Positions 1,474 through 49,691 of a stretch of 64,000 bases of DNA are shown here, piece after piece. A program made the translations under genes and the position numbers. The DNA is from Candidatus Woesearchaeota archaeon. Its GTDB lineage: Archaea > Nanobdellota > Nanobdellia > Woesearchaeales > JAHWIC01. The stretch lies in NCBI GenBank assembly GCA_019322805.1, contig JAHWIC010000001.1:132150-196149 (forward strand), in the 5' to 3' direction. The number at the start of each line of letters is the position of its first letter. Positions within the stretch are counted from its first letter, which is position 1. Under the pieces are notes generated by a model, which had not been told where the DNA came from, made no database searches, and saw nothing but the letters and a program-made list of their open reading frames with translations.

Positions 1474-1847
1474 TTTATTGTAAAGTCCTCTATCATCTAT
1501 AAAATGGAACCTACGAACGTTAGTGAGTATGGCTCCATTTTTAATGCGCGAACCCCCTTCCTCTCGTCTAATCCTGGTCTTTATATAAAGTTTTGTGTTT
1601 AATTGCGGGTGGTGAAAGTGGAAATAGGGGTAAATAGGGCTAGATTTCATCCTAAATCACCTAAAAGAGCATATTTTATTAAATAAAGGCTGAATTGTGG
1701 TTTTTTAACTAAATAAATCTTAAAGAAATCTTCAATGTCGCCAAAGACAATCACTTTTCATTTTAAAACCACAATAGAAACTAAGATGAACTTATATTTA
1801 AGGGTGTCGGTTTGGTATATTTGAGTTGTTTATAAAGGCCCAGCCAC

Positions 1848-1905
1848 CAATGGCAGTCGACGGTCACCCGTAGGGGGCAACCCCCGCCTCGCCGGCGCCA
1901 TGGCT
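1848..1905. other. GC-rich compound hairpin in an otherwise AT-rich intergenic region. It is either a terminator-like element for the 1911-2411 gene or a small structured RNA.
   Basis: CCAGCCAccAATGGC ... GCCATGGCTGG forms an outer stem that encloses a GGGGGcaaCCCCC hairpin. TTTATTT follows on the plus strand. Confidence 0.3.
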
Positions 1906-1910
1906 GGACT

Positions 1911-2411
1911 TTATTTAAAGATCTGGTTCACAACTTCTAGTGCCTTTTCCCTTTTAGCTGGGAATGCTGCTATGCTAATCTTTATATGAAAGCAGTTACC
2001 AGAATCAGTTATCCAGATTTCATTATTCAGGAGCTTTTCTTTATCCAATCTTATGAAGAAGTTGCGCTCATTATCAAGCCTTGATTCAGCCTGCTTTAGC
2101 AAAAGTTCTTTTTGTTCCTGGCTTAAGGATTCTTTCAGCTTCTCCAAGAAACCGTTTATGTGCCTGTCTTTTTCCAAAACAATCTCATAGGTTTTGATTT
2201 TTTTATTGTTAAAGCCAATTGCTGTATCTTCATTTAGTTTTATTTTTTCTTCTTTTAGGTTAAAATGAACCAGAGAAAGTAACTTGTTGAAGATTTTTTC
2301 GCGATCTTCCTCTTCATGGATGAATACGCTAACCTTTATTTGGTGGGCGAGTTTCATAGCAAGGTTTTGTTTTTCGTTATTTAATAATCTTTTCATCAAT
2401 TTAAAAATCAA
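1911..2411 (-). CDS. Conserved hypothetical protein; I could not place it confidently in a family.
   Basis: 166-aa ORF with native K/E-rich composition, lying convergent with the upstream hairpin. Confidence 0.45.
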   Translation of the reverse strand: MIFKLMKRLLNNEKQNLAMKLAHQIKVSVFIHEEEDREKIFNKLLSLVHFNLKEEKIKLNEDTAIGFNNKKIKTYEIVLEKDRHINGFLEKLKESLSQEQKELLLKQAESRLDNERNFFIRLDKEKLLNNEIWITDSGNCFHIKISIAAFPAKREKALEVVNQIFK

Positions 2412-4821: not shown

Positions 4822-5097
4822 GGGCAAGCTAGGCTGGGAGGTTAGCGCTCTCCTGTCACTGTAAACACGCTTTAGACAGAGTCGAAGCCCAGGAAAAGAT
4901 ATAGGCGTAGTATATCAGTCTTGATTTGGACTATGAGGCTTTGTCCTATTGGACTGGTGTCTTAAGGAATTGGGTCAGGCTGGGAACAGAGCAGCCCTAA
5001 CTTCTGATATTGGTGCTTTTAGGGTAGCGGAGCTGAGAAGAAATCGAGGTAACTGGTGTATTATGTTTGTATCGATTTTTGGGCGCGCTTGCCCACT
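4822..5097 (+). ncRNA. ffs: Signal recognition particle RNA (7S/SRP RNA).
   Basis: GC-rich ORF-free block about 275 nt long. The 5' GGGCAAGC pairs with the 3' GCTTGCCC as a terminal helix. The helix-8 motif GGTCAGGCTGGGAACAGAGCAGCC closely matches the conserved GUCAGGUCCGGAAGGAAGCAGCC of 4.5S/7S RNA. Confidence 0.75.
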
Positions 5098-25987: not shown

Positions 25988-26005
25988 TTTGATTTATTTT
26001 TATAA

Positions 26006-26060
26006 TGCGGGAGACGGGTCTTACGAGCCATAATTCCTCCGGAATTAACGGCATTCGAAG
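26006..26060 (-). repeat. 55-nt direct duplicate of the 3' portion of the adjacent tRNA-Leu(GAG) gene (T-loop + T-arm intron + acceptor 3' strand + discriminator).
   Basis: Identical to 26135-26189. Homology extends degenerately about 10 nt further (GCTGCG-TCGGC vs GCTGCGCGGG). Confidence 0.7.
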
Positions 26061-26135
26061 CCGACGCAGCTGAAAAGTCAGCTGGCACCTTCGTGGGTTT
26101 CCTCGCTTCGCTCGTCAAGCCCACTTAACTATGAT

Positions 26136-26281
26136 GCGGGAGACGGGTCTTACGAGCCATAATTCCTCCGGAATTAACGGCATTCGAACCCGCGCAGCCA
26201 CTAAGGCACAAGGCCCTCAACCTTGCTCATTTGACCATTACAGCCTTAAGCAAATGCTCAAAGGTCTCTGACACCCCCGCA
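26136..26281 (-). tRNA. tRNA-Leu(GAG) (class II) interrupted by two non-canonical introns. Intron 1 is in the D-loop (about 26239-26263, 25 nt). Intron 2 lies between the T-loop and the T-stem 3' strand (about 26148-26182, 34 nt).
   Basis: Minus strand: acceptor GCGGGGG/CTCCCGC + A73; D-stem TCA/TGA; D-loop GAGACC[intron]TGGTCAAA; anticodon arm CAAGG-TTGAGGG-CCTTG; variable arm GCC-TTAGT-GGC; T-arm GCGGG-TTCGAAT-[intron]-CCCGT. The mature length is 87 nt. Confidence 0.7.
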
Positions 26282-28871: not shown

Positions 28872-28979
28872 CTGTTATGGTGGCCATGGTGTAGCTCGGC
28901 AGCACTGGAGACACGTTTTAAACGCTTCAATGTGGTATGCCATGCAGAAATCTCCTAGGGCGAGTTCAAATCTCGCTGG
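28872..28979 (+). tRNA. Intron-containing tRNA (Glu/Gln-like D-arm). A 39-nt insert lies between anticodon stem halves GGAGA/TCTCC, i.e. a 32-nt intron plus the loop. The anticodon is unresolved and CCA is encoded.
   Basis: Acceptor GTGGCCA/TGGCCAC + C73 + CCA; D-arm GTGT-AGCTCGGCA-GCAC; T-arm GCGAG-TTCAAAT-CTCGC; 4-nt variable loop; T-rich stretch after the 3' end. No placement of the intron yields a loop with U33. Confidence 0.55.
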
Positions 28980-28988
28980 CCACCCCAT

Positions 28989-31749: not shown

Positions 31750-32142
31750 AAAAGTTAGTAGGGTTAGAATAAGCCACCTTTTGTAGGAACCTTAGTAACC
31801 GCAACTTGTGCGATTGATGCTCCTTCTTAGCATTTAACTAAGCGTCTTTGCGTGCCATAAATGCTCTTCGAGCATTTAACGGTGCTTGACTTGCACAGAC
31901 AAGGACTATCCGTTTCACCCGTTCTTATTAAAACGTCTGCCTGTTAGCTTGTTCTTGTCACCAAAAACTTCAAAGGCATCATCCTCTTAATAAGAGGTCT
32001 CGTTTCTGTGATGTTGCCGCCCATTTCTGGACCTTACTTCCGTAAGTTGCCACAATAAGTGGGTGGACTTTCCTCAGTCAAACAACATGGTTGCCTGCGG
32101 ATTTAACCGCTTGACCGTTAGCTAAGTACTAACCCTACTGCT
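31750..32142 (-). ncRNA. rnpB: RNase P RNA (archaeal type).
   Basis: Minus strand: CR-I GAGGAAAGUCCACCC, CR-II-like GGGUGAAACGGAUAGUCC, CR-V ACAAAAGGUGGCUUAU (P4 pairing AAGUCCACC/GGUGGCUU). The P1 helix pairs GUAGGGUUAG (32127-32139) with CUAACCCUAC (31757-31767). An oligo-U stretch follows the 3' end. Confidence 0.75.
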
Positions 32143-41634: not shown

Positions 41635-41686
41635 AAGAAGTTTGATAGTAAACTATAAATAAAACAATATTTTTCGCTCTCTCTAT

Positions 41687-41853
41687 GCGGGGATGCCGGA
41701 GACCTAAAGGCATATGCCCTAAGGCCGGATTGGCCAAACGGGATAGACTCAAGGCATTTGAGTGTTGAGTGCTCGTCAGAGTGCGATGAAAGAATCATTT
41801 GTAAGTCATCTATTGGCTTAGTGCCTACCGGGGTTCGAATCCTCGTCCCCGCA
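41687..41853 (+). tRNA. tRNA-Leu(CAA) (class II) with two introns: a D-loop intron (about 41705-41730, 26 nt) and a canonical 37/38 anticodon-loop intron (41754-41807, 54 nt).
   Basis: Acceptor GCGGGGA/TCCCCGC + A73; D-arm CCG-GAGACC[intron]TGGCCAAA-CGG; anticodon arm ATAGA-CUCAAG[intron]A-TCTAT (mature loop CUCAAGA); variable arm GGC-TTAGT-GCC; T-arm CGGGG-TTCGAAT-CCTCG. A TATA box AACTATAAATAAAAC lies about 25 nt upstream. Confidence 0.75.
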
Positions 41854-41869
41854 TTTAATTTATAGAATT

Positions 41870-46826: not shown

Positions 46827-47291
46827 ATGGTTGATAAAGCTAAAGAATTTCTTGTCGATTGGATTAGAAACCATCTTAAGAATAGGGATATTATGACCAG
46901 GAGTATTGAGAGTATAGGGTATAACAAAACGGGTTTTGATGTTTATGTAAAATTCAAGGATAAGGAACAATTTATTATTATTGCGCCGATTATTGAGGGT
47001 ATGGGTGGCATCTTGTCAAAACTAAAGGATAAAGAAGCTTGTTATACAATTGTGACATTTAACAATCATAAGAATTTTAAGGAGATTATAAATAATTGGA
47101 ATAAGCTTGCTGAATTTAAATCTTTGAATATATTCTTTGTTAATCCTTTTTCTCAGCTTGATAAAAGATGGATTATCTATCCTCATACCCATAATAAGAT
47201 TTGCGACAAGAGCTCATTAGAGAAAGGTTTAAAGGCAATGTTTGAGATGGTGGAACCTATAAGTGAGGAAGCTATCAAGAATAAGTTCTAG
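46827..47291 (+). CDS. Hypothetical protein.
   Basis: 154-aa ORF of native composition with no motifs I can assign. Confidence 0.4.
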   Translation: MVDKAKEFLVDWIRNHLKNRDIMTRSIESIGYNKTGFDVYVKFKDKEQFIIIAPIIEGMGGILSKLKDKEACYTIVTFNNHKNFKEIINNWNKLAEFKSLNIFFVNPFSQLDKRWIIYPHTHNKICDKSSLEKGLKAMFEMVEPISEEAIKNKF

Positions 47292-47869
47292 ATTAATATT
47301 ACCATTAATTGGCCAACAAATCCTGCAAATAACGGCCCTAATAGATTATCATCAAGTTCGTCTATTAGGATTTCTACTAATGTTGCTGTAAATGCCATTG
47401 CTATTATGACATATACGTTTGTCAAAATTAAAAACCCAATTATCAGATTGATTACCAACTCTGCTACAGAACCTTTTAGTGTCTTGTTTCTGAATATCAA
47501 GGTTAAGCCATATTTTCTTCCAATCATAGCTGCAGCCATATCCCCAAAGGTTGTCATTAACAAAGCTGCTAGAGCTACCCTTTTATCGAATATTGCAAGG
47601 CATATTACTGTTGCTGTCAGAAAGTGTATAACGCTCGATAAGCGATCTTTTTCCTGAGGCGTTATCATCTTTGAATAAAATGGAACTGTTATGTCGCGCT
47701 CAATCCTGAAGTATTCTAAGATCAAGAAGAAAAGTAAAACGCTTACTAAGGTCAACATTGCTGCTTTTTGACCAATGCCTAAGTCTATTATTGAGTAGGC
47801 TATCAGCGTTACAAGTATTAGAAAATGCACTATCCTTCTGCTAACTTCATTTGGAGATGTCCAAACCAT
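47288..47869 (-). CDS. CTP-dependent membrane transferase of the CarS/dolichol-kinase/CDS superfamily.
   Basis: 193 aa, 5-6 TM helices, signature FGDMAAAMIGRKYG (GDxxAxxxGxxxG). Confidence 0.5.
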   Translation of the reverse strand: MVWTSPNEVSRRIVHFLILVTLIAYSIIDLGIGQKAAMLTLVSVLLFFLILEYFRIERDITVPFYSKMITPQEKDRLSSVIHFLTATVICLAIFDKRVALAALLMTTFGDMAAAMIGRKYGLTLIFRNKTLKGSVAELVINLIIGFLILTNVYVIIAMAFTATLVEILIDELDDNLLGPLFAGFVGQLMVILI

Positions 47870-47889
47870 AGTGTTTTAAGAAGAATATG

Positions 47890-48340
47890 AGATTTAAATA
47901 GTTTTCTAACGACTGGTTACGCTCGCCTTGTCCGCGAGCTTGCTCGTGGACTCGCAAGCAAATTGACACGCAATGAGGGTTTCCTCGCGGATAACGCCAT
48001 AAACGCTTCGCGTTTAATTTCACCGCTCGTCAAGCCCTCCAACTGCAACTGGATGTTTTACATTTTGTATACGCTACATTCACATAGCCTCTAAAGGAAT
48101 ATACGGCTGCCGGGACTTCCGAACATTGGAACGACAACGTCATTCCGGGCTTGGGTCCTCTTGCGAGAACTGTGGGCCGCACCTTTCGAACCCGGGTAGC
48201 AAGCTTATTCCAGCTTTATGGGAAGCTCGAATCATACCGCTAGATCACAGCCGTATAATTGGAAGGTATTCTCTTTATGATTTAAAATTTTGTATGTCTG
48301 GATTATCACTGCACGATAGGAACTTTTAAATAATATTATA
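47890..48340. ncRNA. GC-rich, ORF-poor structured block: candidate ncRNA of unknown class (strand undetermined).
   Basis: GC content is far above the genome background and the block has multiple stem-forming segments. A bipartite motif GGGCTTGACGAGCG...CGAGGAAACCC is shared with 26081-26125. The 67-aa ORF at 48126-48329 is probably spurious. Confidence 0.35.
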
Positions 48341-48356
48341 AATTCCCCAGCAGGCT

Positions 48357-49691
48357 ATGGCAAGGAAAGCAAAGAAAGGGAAAGGAGGAAGGGCCTTAAT
48401 TCCATTTTTATATGGAATTTTAGCAAAGAGTGAGGAAGGAACTAGGCTTAGGGAAAGTCCAAGAAAGCTAGGAACTTACCAGGCTTTTTCCGTTGCTAGA
48501 GCAGCTGAAGCTGTAATAGGTCTTTGGACAAGGGAAGAAATAAAAGGCGAGCTAGAGAAAATTGTGGACAGGGATGACTTGTTTTATGCTCCTAGATTTC
48601 ATGTTTGGTTAGAAAGAGAAGGCCGCATAGGCATAACAAAAATGGACAGAGCAGTTAAAAAGCCTCCAAAAAAGCTTGTTGATGAAATTAGTGATGCTGG
48701 AAAAAGAAGAACAAAAAACCTTACAATGCTTCCTGCTTACGACTCTGAAAATTCAAGATATGGCGGAACTTTATCACACAATATCCAACTAACAATGGGT
48801 GTGAAGTCGAGGTCTAGGGGAAATTATCAGGATACACCCCCAGTAAGGCAAGGCTCAATTCACAGGCCGTTATTTGCTAGAGGGCATATGCTACACCCTA
48901 ATATGGCTATTGGAAGTTGTTGCCAAGATTCTGGGGAGCACTCACAAAAAATAAGAGATTACTTTACTTATGTCTGGTGCTATCATTCCCTTGCAAGATT
49001 GACAAGAGCTTATTGGGAAGCAAATGGGAAAGCTGATCTTACCATAGCAGGCCTTAAACTTGGAGCAAGGGTTGCTCTTCCTTTTGATTTCCTAAAAGTG
49101 CCTGAAATGGCGTTTGACCAATTTGCGAGGAGATATGTTGATGGCCAGTCTTTATGGGAGATAAGTTTCGAGATGGCTGAGCATTATGAGAGATTTACCA
49201 CGCAAGAGTTTACTTCTATGCTTCGTGAAGGGGGATGTTTTTTTGGGTTGATTCCATATGCCAGAAATTTCTCTGCTATTGCTGATTCTGTGAAAGAAGC
49301 AGCTATAAGGGCTTTATGGAAAAGGGATGATTATTATTTCCTAGGCCATGGTATTGAAAGGGTTCGTGAGGAAACTAATGGTTTGTGGGACAAACCAATT
49401 GAAAGTTTCATATATATGAAGAAAGAGGGTCATAGGGATTTACCTCAAAGAAAAAGAGTTCATATTGTTGTTAATTCTGATACTGATGGTGTTTATTATG
49501 TTATTAAGGTTCCACAGAATATGGCAGACGGAGTTTTTACATCCACTGCAAAGCCATTAGCAAAATTTGAAGAAGCAGATACCGCCTTTAGAAATGATGT
49601 TGTTTGTGCTGTTTACGAGATACCTGATAAAATACTAGGACCAAAACTAGCTAGAGAATACAGGGAAATTAAAGAAAATGAACAAGCTTAA
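48357..49691 (+). CDS. Hypothetical protein (444 aa) of atypical Arg/Gly/Ala-rich composition.
   Basis: Long ORF directly downstream of the GC-rich noncoding block. No assignable motifs apart from a Cys pair (GSCCQDSGEH). Confidence 0.5.
   Translation: MARKAKKGKGGRALIPFLYGILAKSEEGTRLRESPRKLGTYQAFSVARAAEAVIGLWTREEIKGELEKIVDRDDLFYAPRFHVWLEREGRIGITKMDRAVKKPPKKLVDEISDAGKRRTKNLTMLPAYDSENSRYGGTLSHNIQLTMGVKSRSRGNYQDTPPVRQGSIHRPLFARGHMLHPNMAIGSCCQDSGEHSQKIRDYFTYVWCYHSLARLTRAYWEANGKADLTIAGLKLGARVALPFDFLKVPEMAFDQFARRYVDGQSLWEISFEMAEHYERFTTQEFTSMLREGGCFFGLIPYARNFSAIADSVKEAAIRALWKRDDYYFLGHGIERVREETNGLWDKPIESFIYMKKEGHRDLPQRKRVHIVVNSDTDGVYYVIKVPQNMADGVFTSTAKPLAKFEEADTAFRNDVVCAVYEIPDKILGPKLAREYREIKENEQA

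Follow-up and report, generated by a model that had tools for sequence, protein, structure and literature searches.

The GC-rich block at positions 47,890 to 48,340 of a 64,000-nucleotide stretch of contig JAHWIC010000001.1 from a Candidatus Woesearchaeota archaeon (this whole stretch is called the window below) is best read, with a probability of roughly 0.6, as a composite of a tRNA-Gly(CCC) gene interrupted by two introns and an inserted small, non-autonomous and probably mobile hairpin element, which we call E. The tRNA half of the block is ordinary, a gene that was overlooked owing to an intron in its T loop, and the left half is a genuine small element, apparently not described before, that bears the hallmarks of mobility and is strongly associated with tRNA genes. 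A preliminary description of the block, made from the letters of the window, had taken it for a single 450-bp RNA of unknown identity; in place of that one RNA we find two features. The GC content that had drawn attention to it is real, 0.51-0.59 in 100-nt windows between 47900 and 48250 against a window mean of 0.374, and a noncoding structured RNA or DNA agrees with the region. The failure to fit the signal recognition particle (SRP) RNA or RNase P RNA was likewise borne out: the archaeal genes for both sit elsewhere in the window, at 4822-5094 and 31759-32137 (Rfam), and an Rfam scan of 47700-48500 at E-value ≤10 returned only noise, with no family covering the block. The block lies between the carS open reading frame (ORF; 47288-47869, minus strand), whose homologues carry the names CDP-archaeol synthase or dolichol kinase, and an orphan ORF of 444 amino acids (48357-49691, plus strand). 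Below, labels of the form L followed by a number denote fetched loci or contigs, and win1 and win2 denote the copies of the element at 26094-26125 and 47910-48077, respectively.

Element E and the tRNA-Gly(CCC) gene

Two minus-strand strings, GGGCTTGACGAGCG and CGAGGAAACCC, occur with zero mismatches both in the block (48024-48037 / 47977-47987) and beside a tRNA-Leu(GAG) gene (26109-26122 / 26095-26105). This bipartite pattern has two matches in the window and none in 100 dinucleotide-preserving shuffles; the motif that the preliminary description had seen at both places is a genuine shared structured element, and its long and compact copies differ as had been described, with gaps of 36 nt and 3 nt. 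We then aligned the spacer between the tRNA-Gly 3′ end and the carS ATG with syntenic loci that were found through CarS homologues at graded distances. The spacer measures 46 nt in L152 (CarS 89% identical), ~53 nt in L154 (76%), ~157 nt in L153 (80%) and 232 nt in the window; the extra DNA amounts to ~185 nt in the window and ~115 nt in L153, with none in L152, L154 or L002. The inserts of L153 and the window are homologous and have the same flanks (...AATGTAA(A/G)ACAT...GTTGCAGTTG-hairpin-(A/C)TTGCGTGTCAA...GCGTAACCAGT), and they therefore represent one insertion in two genomes, which the closest of the sampled relatives lacks. The empty site of L152 has a single target, TTTAGAAAGCTATTTAAAT, which in the window borders E on both sides. 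Judged from this alignment, E at the carS site is flanked by a target duplication of 18-19 nt that includes the carS TATA box; its right copy reads AGATTTAAAT on the plus strand, resembling the SRP RNA promoter. A local-alignment test for a flanking repeat at win2 gave nothing, and the degraded duplication is visible only against the empty site. Relative to L153, the E of the window has two internal GC-rich hairpin expansions, of 36 and 40 nt. The apical one extends the hairpin fold on either strand and is absent from the compact copy and from L153; in place of the other, L153 has just CCGC, and the G.U pair of that 40-nt hairpin exists on the plus strand only. It is because of these two expansions that the left half resembles a structured-RNA gene. 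The possibility that 47890-47976 is built from degenerate copies of the core was tested and was not significant. Two T4 runs at 48056-48066 could terminate a plus-strand E transcript; the SRP and RNase P RNA genes likewise end in T runs.

The second copy in the window, win1, is also associated with a duplication. The order on the minus strand is rpoD, tRNA-Leu(GAG), a 10-nt spacer, the compact hairpin, a palindromic accessory hairpin, a 70-nt repeat of the tRNA-Leu 3′ part (67/70 identical, z = 49) and the L18e promoter. The T stem of the duplicated fragment is defective, and the parent gene, 10 nt from the hairpin, is intact. In orthologous spacers, which were found through RpoD homologues, the win1 site is empty in L148 (RpoD 89% identical), L150 and L151, where the L18e gene directly follows tRNA-Leu(GAG). 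L137, a 48%-GC contig, has the order rpoD - tRNA-Leu - E - L18e, which by eye is apparently orthologous, with a different extent of the repeat. The preliminary description had put the compact form at 26081-26125 of the minus strand; by the outline of the hairpin itself, that start was slightly too wide (Table 1).

The right half of the block contains the tRNA-Gly(CCC) gene, betrayed on the minus strand by the D loop AGCGGUA, the string UUCCCA and the T-loop motif GGGUUCGAA. Manual removal of 48218-48206 (13 nt) and 48184-48116 (69 nt) left a 71-mer that ARAGORN calls tRNA-Gly(CCC), with four intact stems, a 7-bp acceptor and a 7-nt anticodon loop. The mature molecule would have the T loop UUCGAAU, the same D loop and the identity set C2-G71, G3-C70 and A73; A1-U72 stands in place of the usual G1-C72 and is common to all orthologues. 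Such orthologues are syntenic, between carS and the 444-aa gene, in L002, L152, L153 and L154 and non-syntenic in L140, L142 and L130, and the four that were compared match the mature tRNA of the window at 58-66 of 71-72 positions. A TATA-like box precedes the gene at a spacing (~30-34 nt) also seen before the SRP RNA, RNase P RNA and tRNA-Leu genes of the window. By its sequence the gene is expressed-looking, normal apart from its two introns.

Candidate splicing structures can be drawn at both introns. In intron 1, GGAA would pair with UUCC of the anticodon loop to form a bulge-helix-loop with a 3′ bulge, UA/A, and a loop (paired by hand); L152 and L153 have near-identical 13-nt introns, and the syntenic gene of L002 has one intron of 50 nt, at 37/38. 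The minimum-energy fold of the pre-tRNA keeps the T stem, followed by a 3-nt bulge, AGU, and then a helix, UUCGAA/UUCGGA; the 5′ bulge AA/A needs 2 bp to be opened in this fold. The predicted structure around intron 2 is thus a relaxed bulge-helix-bulge (BHB), and the archaeal splicing endonuclease would remove both introns at relaxed BHB motifs. The T-loop intron is homologous to that of the tRNA-Gly of L142 (z = 6.2) and is also present in L152, L153 and L154; across these genomes the 69-nt intron keeps the pattern GGCCCA..GTT..CGCAAG..GGA..CAAGCC. By this sequence conservation it may be a second conserved intron module. Neither the Rfam tRNA model RF00005 nor default ARAGORN detected the gene, as is to be expected with a T-loop intron that falls outside what the models allow; the tRNA-Gly of L140, with fewer introns, is detected by standard models. 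The statement that no tRNA fits the block thus has to be withdrawn, and the RNase-P-like strings noticed there are sequence of the tRNA-Gly T arm and T-loop intron. The ORF at 48126-48329, which overlaps the tRNA-Gly gene, was rightly dismissed as spurious. A check for a multiply split tRNA had also been proposed; half of the block did prove to be a doubly interrupted tRNA, and no split or permuted half was found.

Table 1. Positions of element E, the tRNA genes and their parts in the window, followed by the locations of family copies in other loci
Feature	Position	Strand	Remarks
Inserted element E	47910..48077		168 nt
Left copy of duplicated target	48078..48095		minus-strand TTTAGAGGCTATGTGAAT, TATA box degraded
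Right copy of duplicated target	47892..47909		(G)TTAGAAAACTATTTAAAT, functional carS TATA box 47893-47899
Family hairpin, long form	47975..48039		outer stem GAGGG/CCCTC
Core half GGGCTTGACGAGC	48025..48037	-	
Core half GCGAGGAAACCC	47977..47988	-	
36-nt apical expansion	47989..48024		second GCGAAGC-capped 7-bp stem
40-nt second hairpin	47923..47962		plus strand GUCCGCGAG-CUUG-CUCGUGGAC + outer stem; genome-specific expansion
Two T4 runs	48056..48066	+	candidate terminator of plus-strand E transcript
tRNA-Gly(CCC), two introns	48102..48254	-	153 nt unspliced, 71 nt spliced
TATA-like box TTTTAAAT	48280..48287	-	33 nt upstream of tRNA-Gly 5′ end; by eye
tRNA-Gly exon 1 (positions 1-37)	48219..48254	-	manual splicing
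tRNA-Gly intron 1, UAAAGCUGGAAUA	48206..48218	-	13 nt, canonical 37/38; manual splicing
tRNA-Gly exon 2 (position 38 to T-loop A59)	48185..48205	-	manual splicing
tRNA-Gly intron 2	48116..48184	-	69 nt, non-canonical T loop 59/60, junction ambiguous ~1 nt
tRNA-Gly exon 3 (U60 to discriminator A73)	48102..48115	-	manual splicing
Compact hairpin, win1	26094..26125	-	10 nt 3′ of tRNA-Leu(GAG)
Duplicated tRNA-Leu 3′ part (T loop, intron, 3′ end + 5 nt)	26001..26070	-	repeat of 26130-26198
tRNA-Leu(GAG), two introns	26135-26280	-	introns D loop 26262-26238, T loop 26181-26148
Family copies, intron 21/22	L126 (Ala-CGC)		
Family copies, intron 37/38	L133, L134 (Thr-CGU); L136, L139, L141 (Arg-UCG); L140, L142 (Gly-CCC)		
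Family copies, 5′ leader	L127 (Ile-GAU); L129 = L132 (Thr-CGU); L130 (Gly-CCC); L135 (permease gene)		
Family copies, intergenic	L128, L137		

A family of hairpins in and beside tRNA genes

An exact bipartite search of the Joint Genome Institute (JGI) metagenomes, in which exact halves were required, returned 18 loci. Fifteen of these are AT-rich (31-52% GC), Woesearchaeota-like archaeal contigs, many with the hairpin in or beside tRNA genes. Three others (L125, L131 and L138) were discarded as coding sequence in GC-rich bacteria, that of L125 being MreB-like. Searched alone in genome contigs, the 14-mer gave 120 chance matches, nearly all bacterial, and the second half was present in none of them. 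The compact hairpins follow the consensus G-N-GGGCTTGACGAGC-(GAA/GTA/AAA/GGA/CAAAG)-GCGAGGAAACCC-N′-C. They are ~26-32 nt long and consist of an outer stem, G-N-GGG / CCC-N′-C, an internal loop, CTTGACGA / GAGGAAA, an inner GC/GC stem and a variable apex; the internal-loop region is highly conserved, and the outermost variable pair covaries (A-U, U-A, G-C). The core halves are identical in 17 copies and the flanks vary, a uniformity that is partly built in because the search demanded exact halves. When ~290 kb of fetched DNA were searched for diverged cores or isolated halves, no variants with 1-3 mismatches appeared, and the one variant found was that of L153. There the core (L153:2407-2428) reads GAGGGCTTGA-GCGAAGC-GAAACCCTC, a symmetric loss of 3+3 nt (CGA and GAG) that keeps the hairpin. 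This compensated deletion, found by synteny, supports selection on structure and indicates that core variants exist. Rfam had no match to E at E-value ≤10 in the window region or at E-value ≤0.5 in 14 family loci, and IMG/VR, the INPHARED phages and the PLSDB plasmids had none. Full-text literature searches with sequence strings and for DPANN tRNA introns gave nothing relevant and no paper with the sequence.

Eight copies are intronic, in four isoacceptors and at two intron positions, and their host tRNAs are recognised by ARAGORN after manual splicing. The hairpin together with a region that we call type a recurs in Ala-CGC (21/22) and in Thr-CGU, Arg-UCG and Gly-CCC (37/38), the pattern expected of a transposed intron. 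Type-a copies have ~66 nt in common; among these are a second hairpin, CAACCUUUU...AAAAGGUUG, and a linker that could pair with the arms of the hairpin by its complementary sequence. Orthologous tRNAs also occur with and without an intronic E: Thr-CGU has it in L133 and L134 and lacks it in L129, and Gly-CCC has it in L140 and L142 and lacks it in the window, L002 and L130. These locations make the earlier suggestion of an intron-derived fragment or an undescribed noncoding RNA a good lead, since the family hairpin does sit within tRNA introns elsewhere, but the copies in the window are not intronic. In all eight intronic copies and in 4-5 leader copies, the transcript would carry the pyrimidine-rich UC strand, GGGUUUCCUCGC...GCUCGUCAAGCCC. 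An accessory-hairpin subtype, GGTGCCAGCTGAC..TCAGCTG, is shared by win1, beside tRNA-Leu, and by the copy within the tRNA-Gly intron of L140.

Direct duplications flank several of the other copies, namely 27 nt in L129 (z = 7), 26 nt in L130 (z = 18), 68 nt in L135 (z = 36), ~70 nt in L137 (z = 38) and 70 nt in win1 (z = 49), and one intact gene copy is left each time. No recurrent protein gene was found beside E across the loci. In L135 (~600-900), the 5′ end of an amino-acid-permease-like gene is present twice, as 68-nt copies with 4-5 differences, and E lies between them. The promoter and start codon are retained in the upstream, partial copy, whose reading frame continues through E and ends at the start of the second ATG. 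Near E in L137 (~58 nt downstream of tRNA-Leu) and in L128 there is a perfect palindrome, (G)GGGCTTGAAC-N3-4-GTTCAAGCCCC, which joins the 5′ arm of one core strand to the 3′ arm of the other. In L127:1-140 a second duplicated tRNA 3′ fragment, AATGGGCCCGCGGAGAC, lies ~130 nt from tRNA-Ile(GAU), and the intervening DNA has no core hairpin.

The tRNA-Gly gene is not the only interrupted tRNA of the window, which has at least three tRNAs, all multiply interrupted. Default ARAGORN found 0 tRNAs in the whole 64 kb, and the Rfam tRNA model likewise none; tRNA-Leu(GAG) was recognised by ARAGORN solely after splicing and at a relaxed threshold. Since the tRNAs of the window are overlooked by default tools, the tRNA complements of such metagenome-assembled genomes are probably underestimated. 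Near 41686-41858 (plus strand) there is a tRNA-Leu(CAA)-like gene whose introns are long, and ARAGORN -i made a doubtful tRNA-Ser call at 28880-28987. Elsewhere in the window, a 75% GC island at 1838-1925 (plus strand; GGCCCAGCCACCAATGGCAG...CGCCATGGCTGGAC), with TTTATAAAG before it and a T-rich run after it, is a candidate structured RNA that had no Rfam match at E-value ≤1. The 444-aa ORF beside the block has four homologues only among 5.8 billion proteins and no Pfam domain. The same genome is represented by the 261-kb JGI contig Ga0309836_1000003, in which L145/L146 lie left of the window start; this contig has complete Trp and Ile/Val biosynthesis operons, an anabolic capacity above the DPANN norm.

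Explanations for element E

We ranked the explanations for the observed anatomy of E, its family, its filled and empty sites, its target duplications and its orientation bias as follows: a non-autonomous mobile hairpin, a functional small RNA module, hairpin-driven template switching and integration scars. On the first of these, the reading that we prefer, E would have entered the carS site by duplicating ~19 nt of target and, in this lineage, would then have grown by the two internal GC-rich hairpin expansions. In Woesearchaeota-like archaea the family is found in the introns of tRNAs, in the leaders of tRNAs and mRNAs and in spacers close to promoters; where E lands in a gene end, a target duplication of 26-70 nt would restore an intact gene copy, and within tRNAs it sits in introns, always with the UC strand in the transcript. 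On this model E would be mobile rather than merely lost in some lineages, tRNA genes and introns would serve it as safe sites, and the conserved core would be either the recognition site of a putative trans-acting factor or a replication-stalling hairpin that drives template switching. A more far-reaching reading, which we put at well under even odds, is that E represents an unrecognised class of archaeal mobile element, a protein-less hairpin, possibly with an RNA or single-stranded DNA intermediate, that makes long and variable target duplications at promoter-proximal ends of genes and at the ends of tRNAs and, in tRNAs, gives rise to a spliceable intron or to tRNA fragments.

Several results weigh against mobility. 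No transposase, integrase or reverse transcriptase linked to E was found, a target duplication is missing at the intronic copies and at L128, and the duplication lengths (~19, 26, 27, 68 and 70 nt) match no known transposition chemistry. Precise loss by recombination between repeats could also give filled and empty sites, and therefore the polarity of insertion is inferred. The window is filled, its nearest relative is empty and the next is filled, a distribution that calls for either loss or lateral exchange. The exact-halves search makes the core look more invariant than it is, and the copy found by synteny, in L153, differs. The strand cues are split: on the GA strand there are two tandem G.A pairs and GNA triloops, and the UC strand has the sense orientation and a U.G pair that lengthens its outer stem to 8 bp. 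RNA folding energies of the compact and long hairpins are similar on both strands, and DNA parameters were uninformative. By the measures used for miniature inverted-repeat transposable elements (MITEs), E shows presence and absence at two loci, variable duplications of 19-70 nt, and hairpin arms that could pass for imperfect inverted repeats, although they are internal to the insert rather than terminal.

The strand bias is what a functional small RNA module, rather than selfish DNA, would predict, and this explanation, which we consider doubtful, holds that UC-strand RNA is made from tRNA introns, from leaders cut by RNase P or from a promoter of its own. At win2, the model predicts, with the same doubt, a stand-alone plus-strand RNA of ~150 nt (47921-48070) with the AGATTTAAAT box before it and a T-run end, in which the conserved internal loop binds a protein or a target RNA. 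The UC strand is sense in all intronic and leader copies, the core is conserved where the flanks vary, and the distance from AGATTTAAAT to the structured region downstream of it is 30-33 nt, in agreement with the SRP RNA promoter of the same genome, with T runs following. The plus-strand 152-mer also folds with z = -3.5 (0/200 shuffles as stable) and keeps the family hairpin, whereas the minus strand has z = -2.5 with the hairpin refolded, and the U.G and G.U pairs are confined to the UC (plus) strand. However, the TATA box belonged to the carS promoter before the insertion duplicated it, and a purine tract like a transcription factor B recognition element favours the carS direction. In win1, L137 and L128 it is the GA strand that is co-oriented with the neighbours, and in win1 there is no terminator from tRNA-Leu to the hairpin. 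The nearest relative lacks E at both loci, and E is therefore dispensable; no target complementarity was found in the window, and the target duplications are left unexplained. Those duplications are what enzyme-free spread, which strikes us as improbable, would account for: a stable single-stranded DNA hairpin of the GA strand, with a d(GCGAAGC)-type cap and tandem sheared G.A pairs, would stall replication, and a template switch would copy E and resume upstream, leaving a tandem duplication. The d(GCGAAGC) hairpin is unusually stable. E is always found precisely where two direct copies meet, whatever their length (19-70 nt), the partial copy beside it is degraded or expanded, the expansions inside E are GC-rich hairpins with GCGAAGC or GCAAGC caps, and the type-a linkers repeat the hairpin arms in inverse and collapsed form. 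Against this, the nearest-neighbour DNA fold of the compact hairpin gave -2.4 kcal/mol with z about 0, from parameters that under-rate sheared G.A pairs, and template switching leaves unexplained the intronic copies without duplications, the strict sense orientation in transcripts and the recurrence of the same core in very different genomes.

A tRNA fragment, an insert and an intact tRNA also make up the classical footprint of integration, at least in the account that PMC4033280 gives with reference to Sugahara et al. 2012 (PMC3293823), and the duplications do span 5′ or 3′ parts of tRNAs. The repeats could then be attachment (att) sites and E all that is left of larger plasmids or viruses that integrated into tRNA genes by a tyrosine recombinase, as has been proposed for the pairing of a tRNA fragment with a tRNA gene in Caldiarchaeum. 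We regard this as quite unlikely: at each of seven or more independent sites the insert measures just 60-170 nt, contains no ORF and keeps the same hairpin; the duplicated segments differ from site to site (the TATA box at win2, the permease 5′ end in L135), so that there is no single attP; there is no integrase gene or pseudogene nearby; and the virus and plasmid collections had no match. Least probable of all, and hard to sustain, is that the hairpin is a k-turn/L7Ae site, as the preliminary description had suggested, or that it forms the leader of one half of a split or permuted tRNA, with the tRNA-Leu fragment as its trans-splicing partner. Tandem G.A pairs are present on the minus strand, a tRNA-Leu 3′ fragment is close by and the lineage tolerates heavily interrupted tRNAs. 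The two tandem G.A pairs, however, are split by a C-G pair and lie in a continuous helix with a single bulged C; no register gives an adjacent 3-nt bulge by a Watson-Crick stem, and in 12-13 family members that are transcribed, the G.A strand is the antisense one. As for a split tRNA, the two copies in the window have the same sense and therefore cannot pair as leader and trailer, no complementary partner was found in the 64 kb, and the tRNA-Leu fragment is a degraded duplicate beside its intact parent. Hammerhead, pistol-like, C/D, H/ACA, sarcin-ricin, dif/att-core and integron attC identities were set aside, with unfit spacing by eye and no Rfam support. A group II intron remnant, also proposed earlier, left no signal: neither Intron_gpII nor group-II-D1D4 matched at E-value ≤10 in the block or at E-value ≤0.5 in the 14 related loci.

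Relation to known systems

Intron gain and fragmentation of archaeal tRNA genes are a long-standing question for which the evidence has so far been mostly indirect, coming from the similarity of introns in Thermoproteales and from one recombinase-bearing insertion in Caldiarchaeum. The E family offers a compact marker that is easy to search for. Filled and empty sites can be compared between genomes with 76-89% identity in the flanking proteins, and insertions are seen in three states: in a spacer between genes, at a duplicated gene end with a tRNA fragment left over, and as a true intron. If E does belong to a protein-less mobile class, it would let the origin of archaeal tRNA introns, and in the long run of split tRNA genes, be watched in progress.

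MITEs, repetitive extragenic palindromic (REP) sequences with their REP-associated tyrosine transposases (RAYT) and the palindrome-associated transposable elements (PATEs) derived from IS200/IS605 are short non-coding imperfect palindromes of low to moderate copy number, with a hairpin that is recognised on one strand. IS200/IS605 elements and REPs make no target duplication, and those of classical MITEs measure 2-10 bp; E differs in its long and variable target duplications, in its strong association with tRNA genes and in having no known partner transposase. The intron of archaeal pre-tRNA-Trp hosts a C/D box small RNA that is released by tRNA splicing and is, like E, a conserved module carried in a tRNA intron; E, in contrast, has no C/D or C′/D′ boxes, no guide complementarity was found for it, and it is dispensable in close relatives. 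With short interspersed nuclear elements (SINEs), E shares target duplications of variable length, the association with tRNAs and a sense (UC) RNA whose 3′ end holds a conserved hairpin, but it has no identified reverse transcriptase partner and no consistent A-rich tail. To our knowledge, no SINEs are known from prokaryotes.

The closest described phenomena are the transposition of introns in Thermoproteales and the tRNA-fragment/recombinase insertion of Caldiarchaeum (PMC4033280). In Caldiarchaeum subterraneum, a partial and an intact tRNA flank an insertion, which was proposed as a route to intron gain and split tRNAs (Sugahara et al. 2012, PMC3293823); that insert is 1.8 kb long and encodes a recombinase, whereas E is 60-170 nt, non-coding and built on a conserved hairpin. 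In Thermoproteales, introns of similar sequence are found at differing positions and in more than one tRNA species (Fujishima et al. 2010, as summarised in PMC4033280), and this likeness across tRNAs implies that the introns have moved. The two systems are alike in relaxed BHB splicing at non-canonical sites. They differ in what is shared, a whole-intron similarity in Thermoproteales and a defined hairpin module in E, and in range, since E also occurs outside tRNAs, in promoter spacers, in leaders and at the 5′ end of a protein gene. Finally, the non-intronic copies of E have target duplications and empty sites in close relatives, and the lineage is another one, the Woesearchaeota (DPANN).

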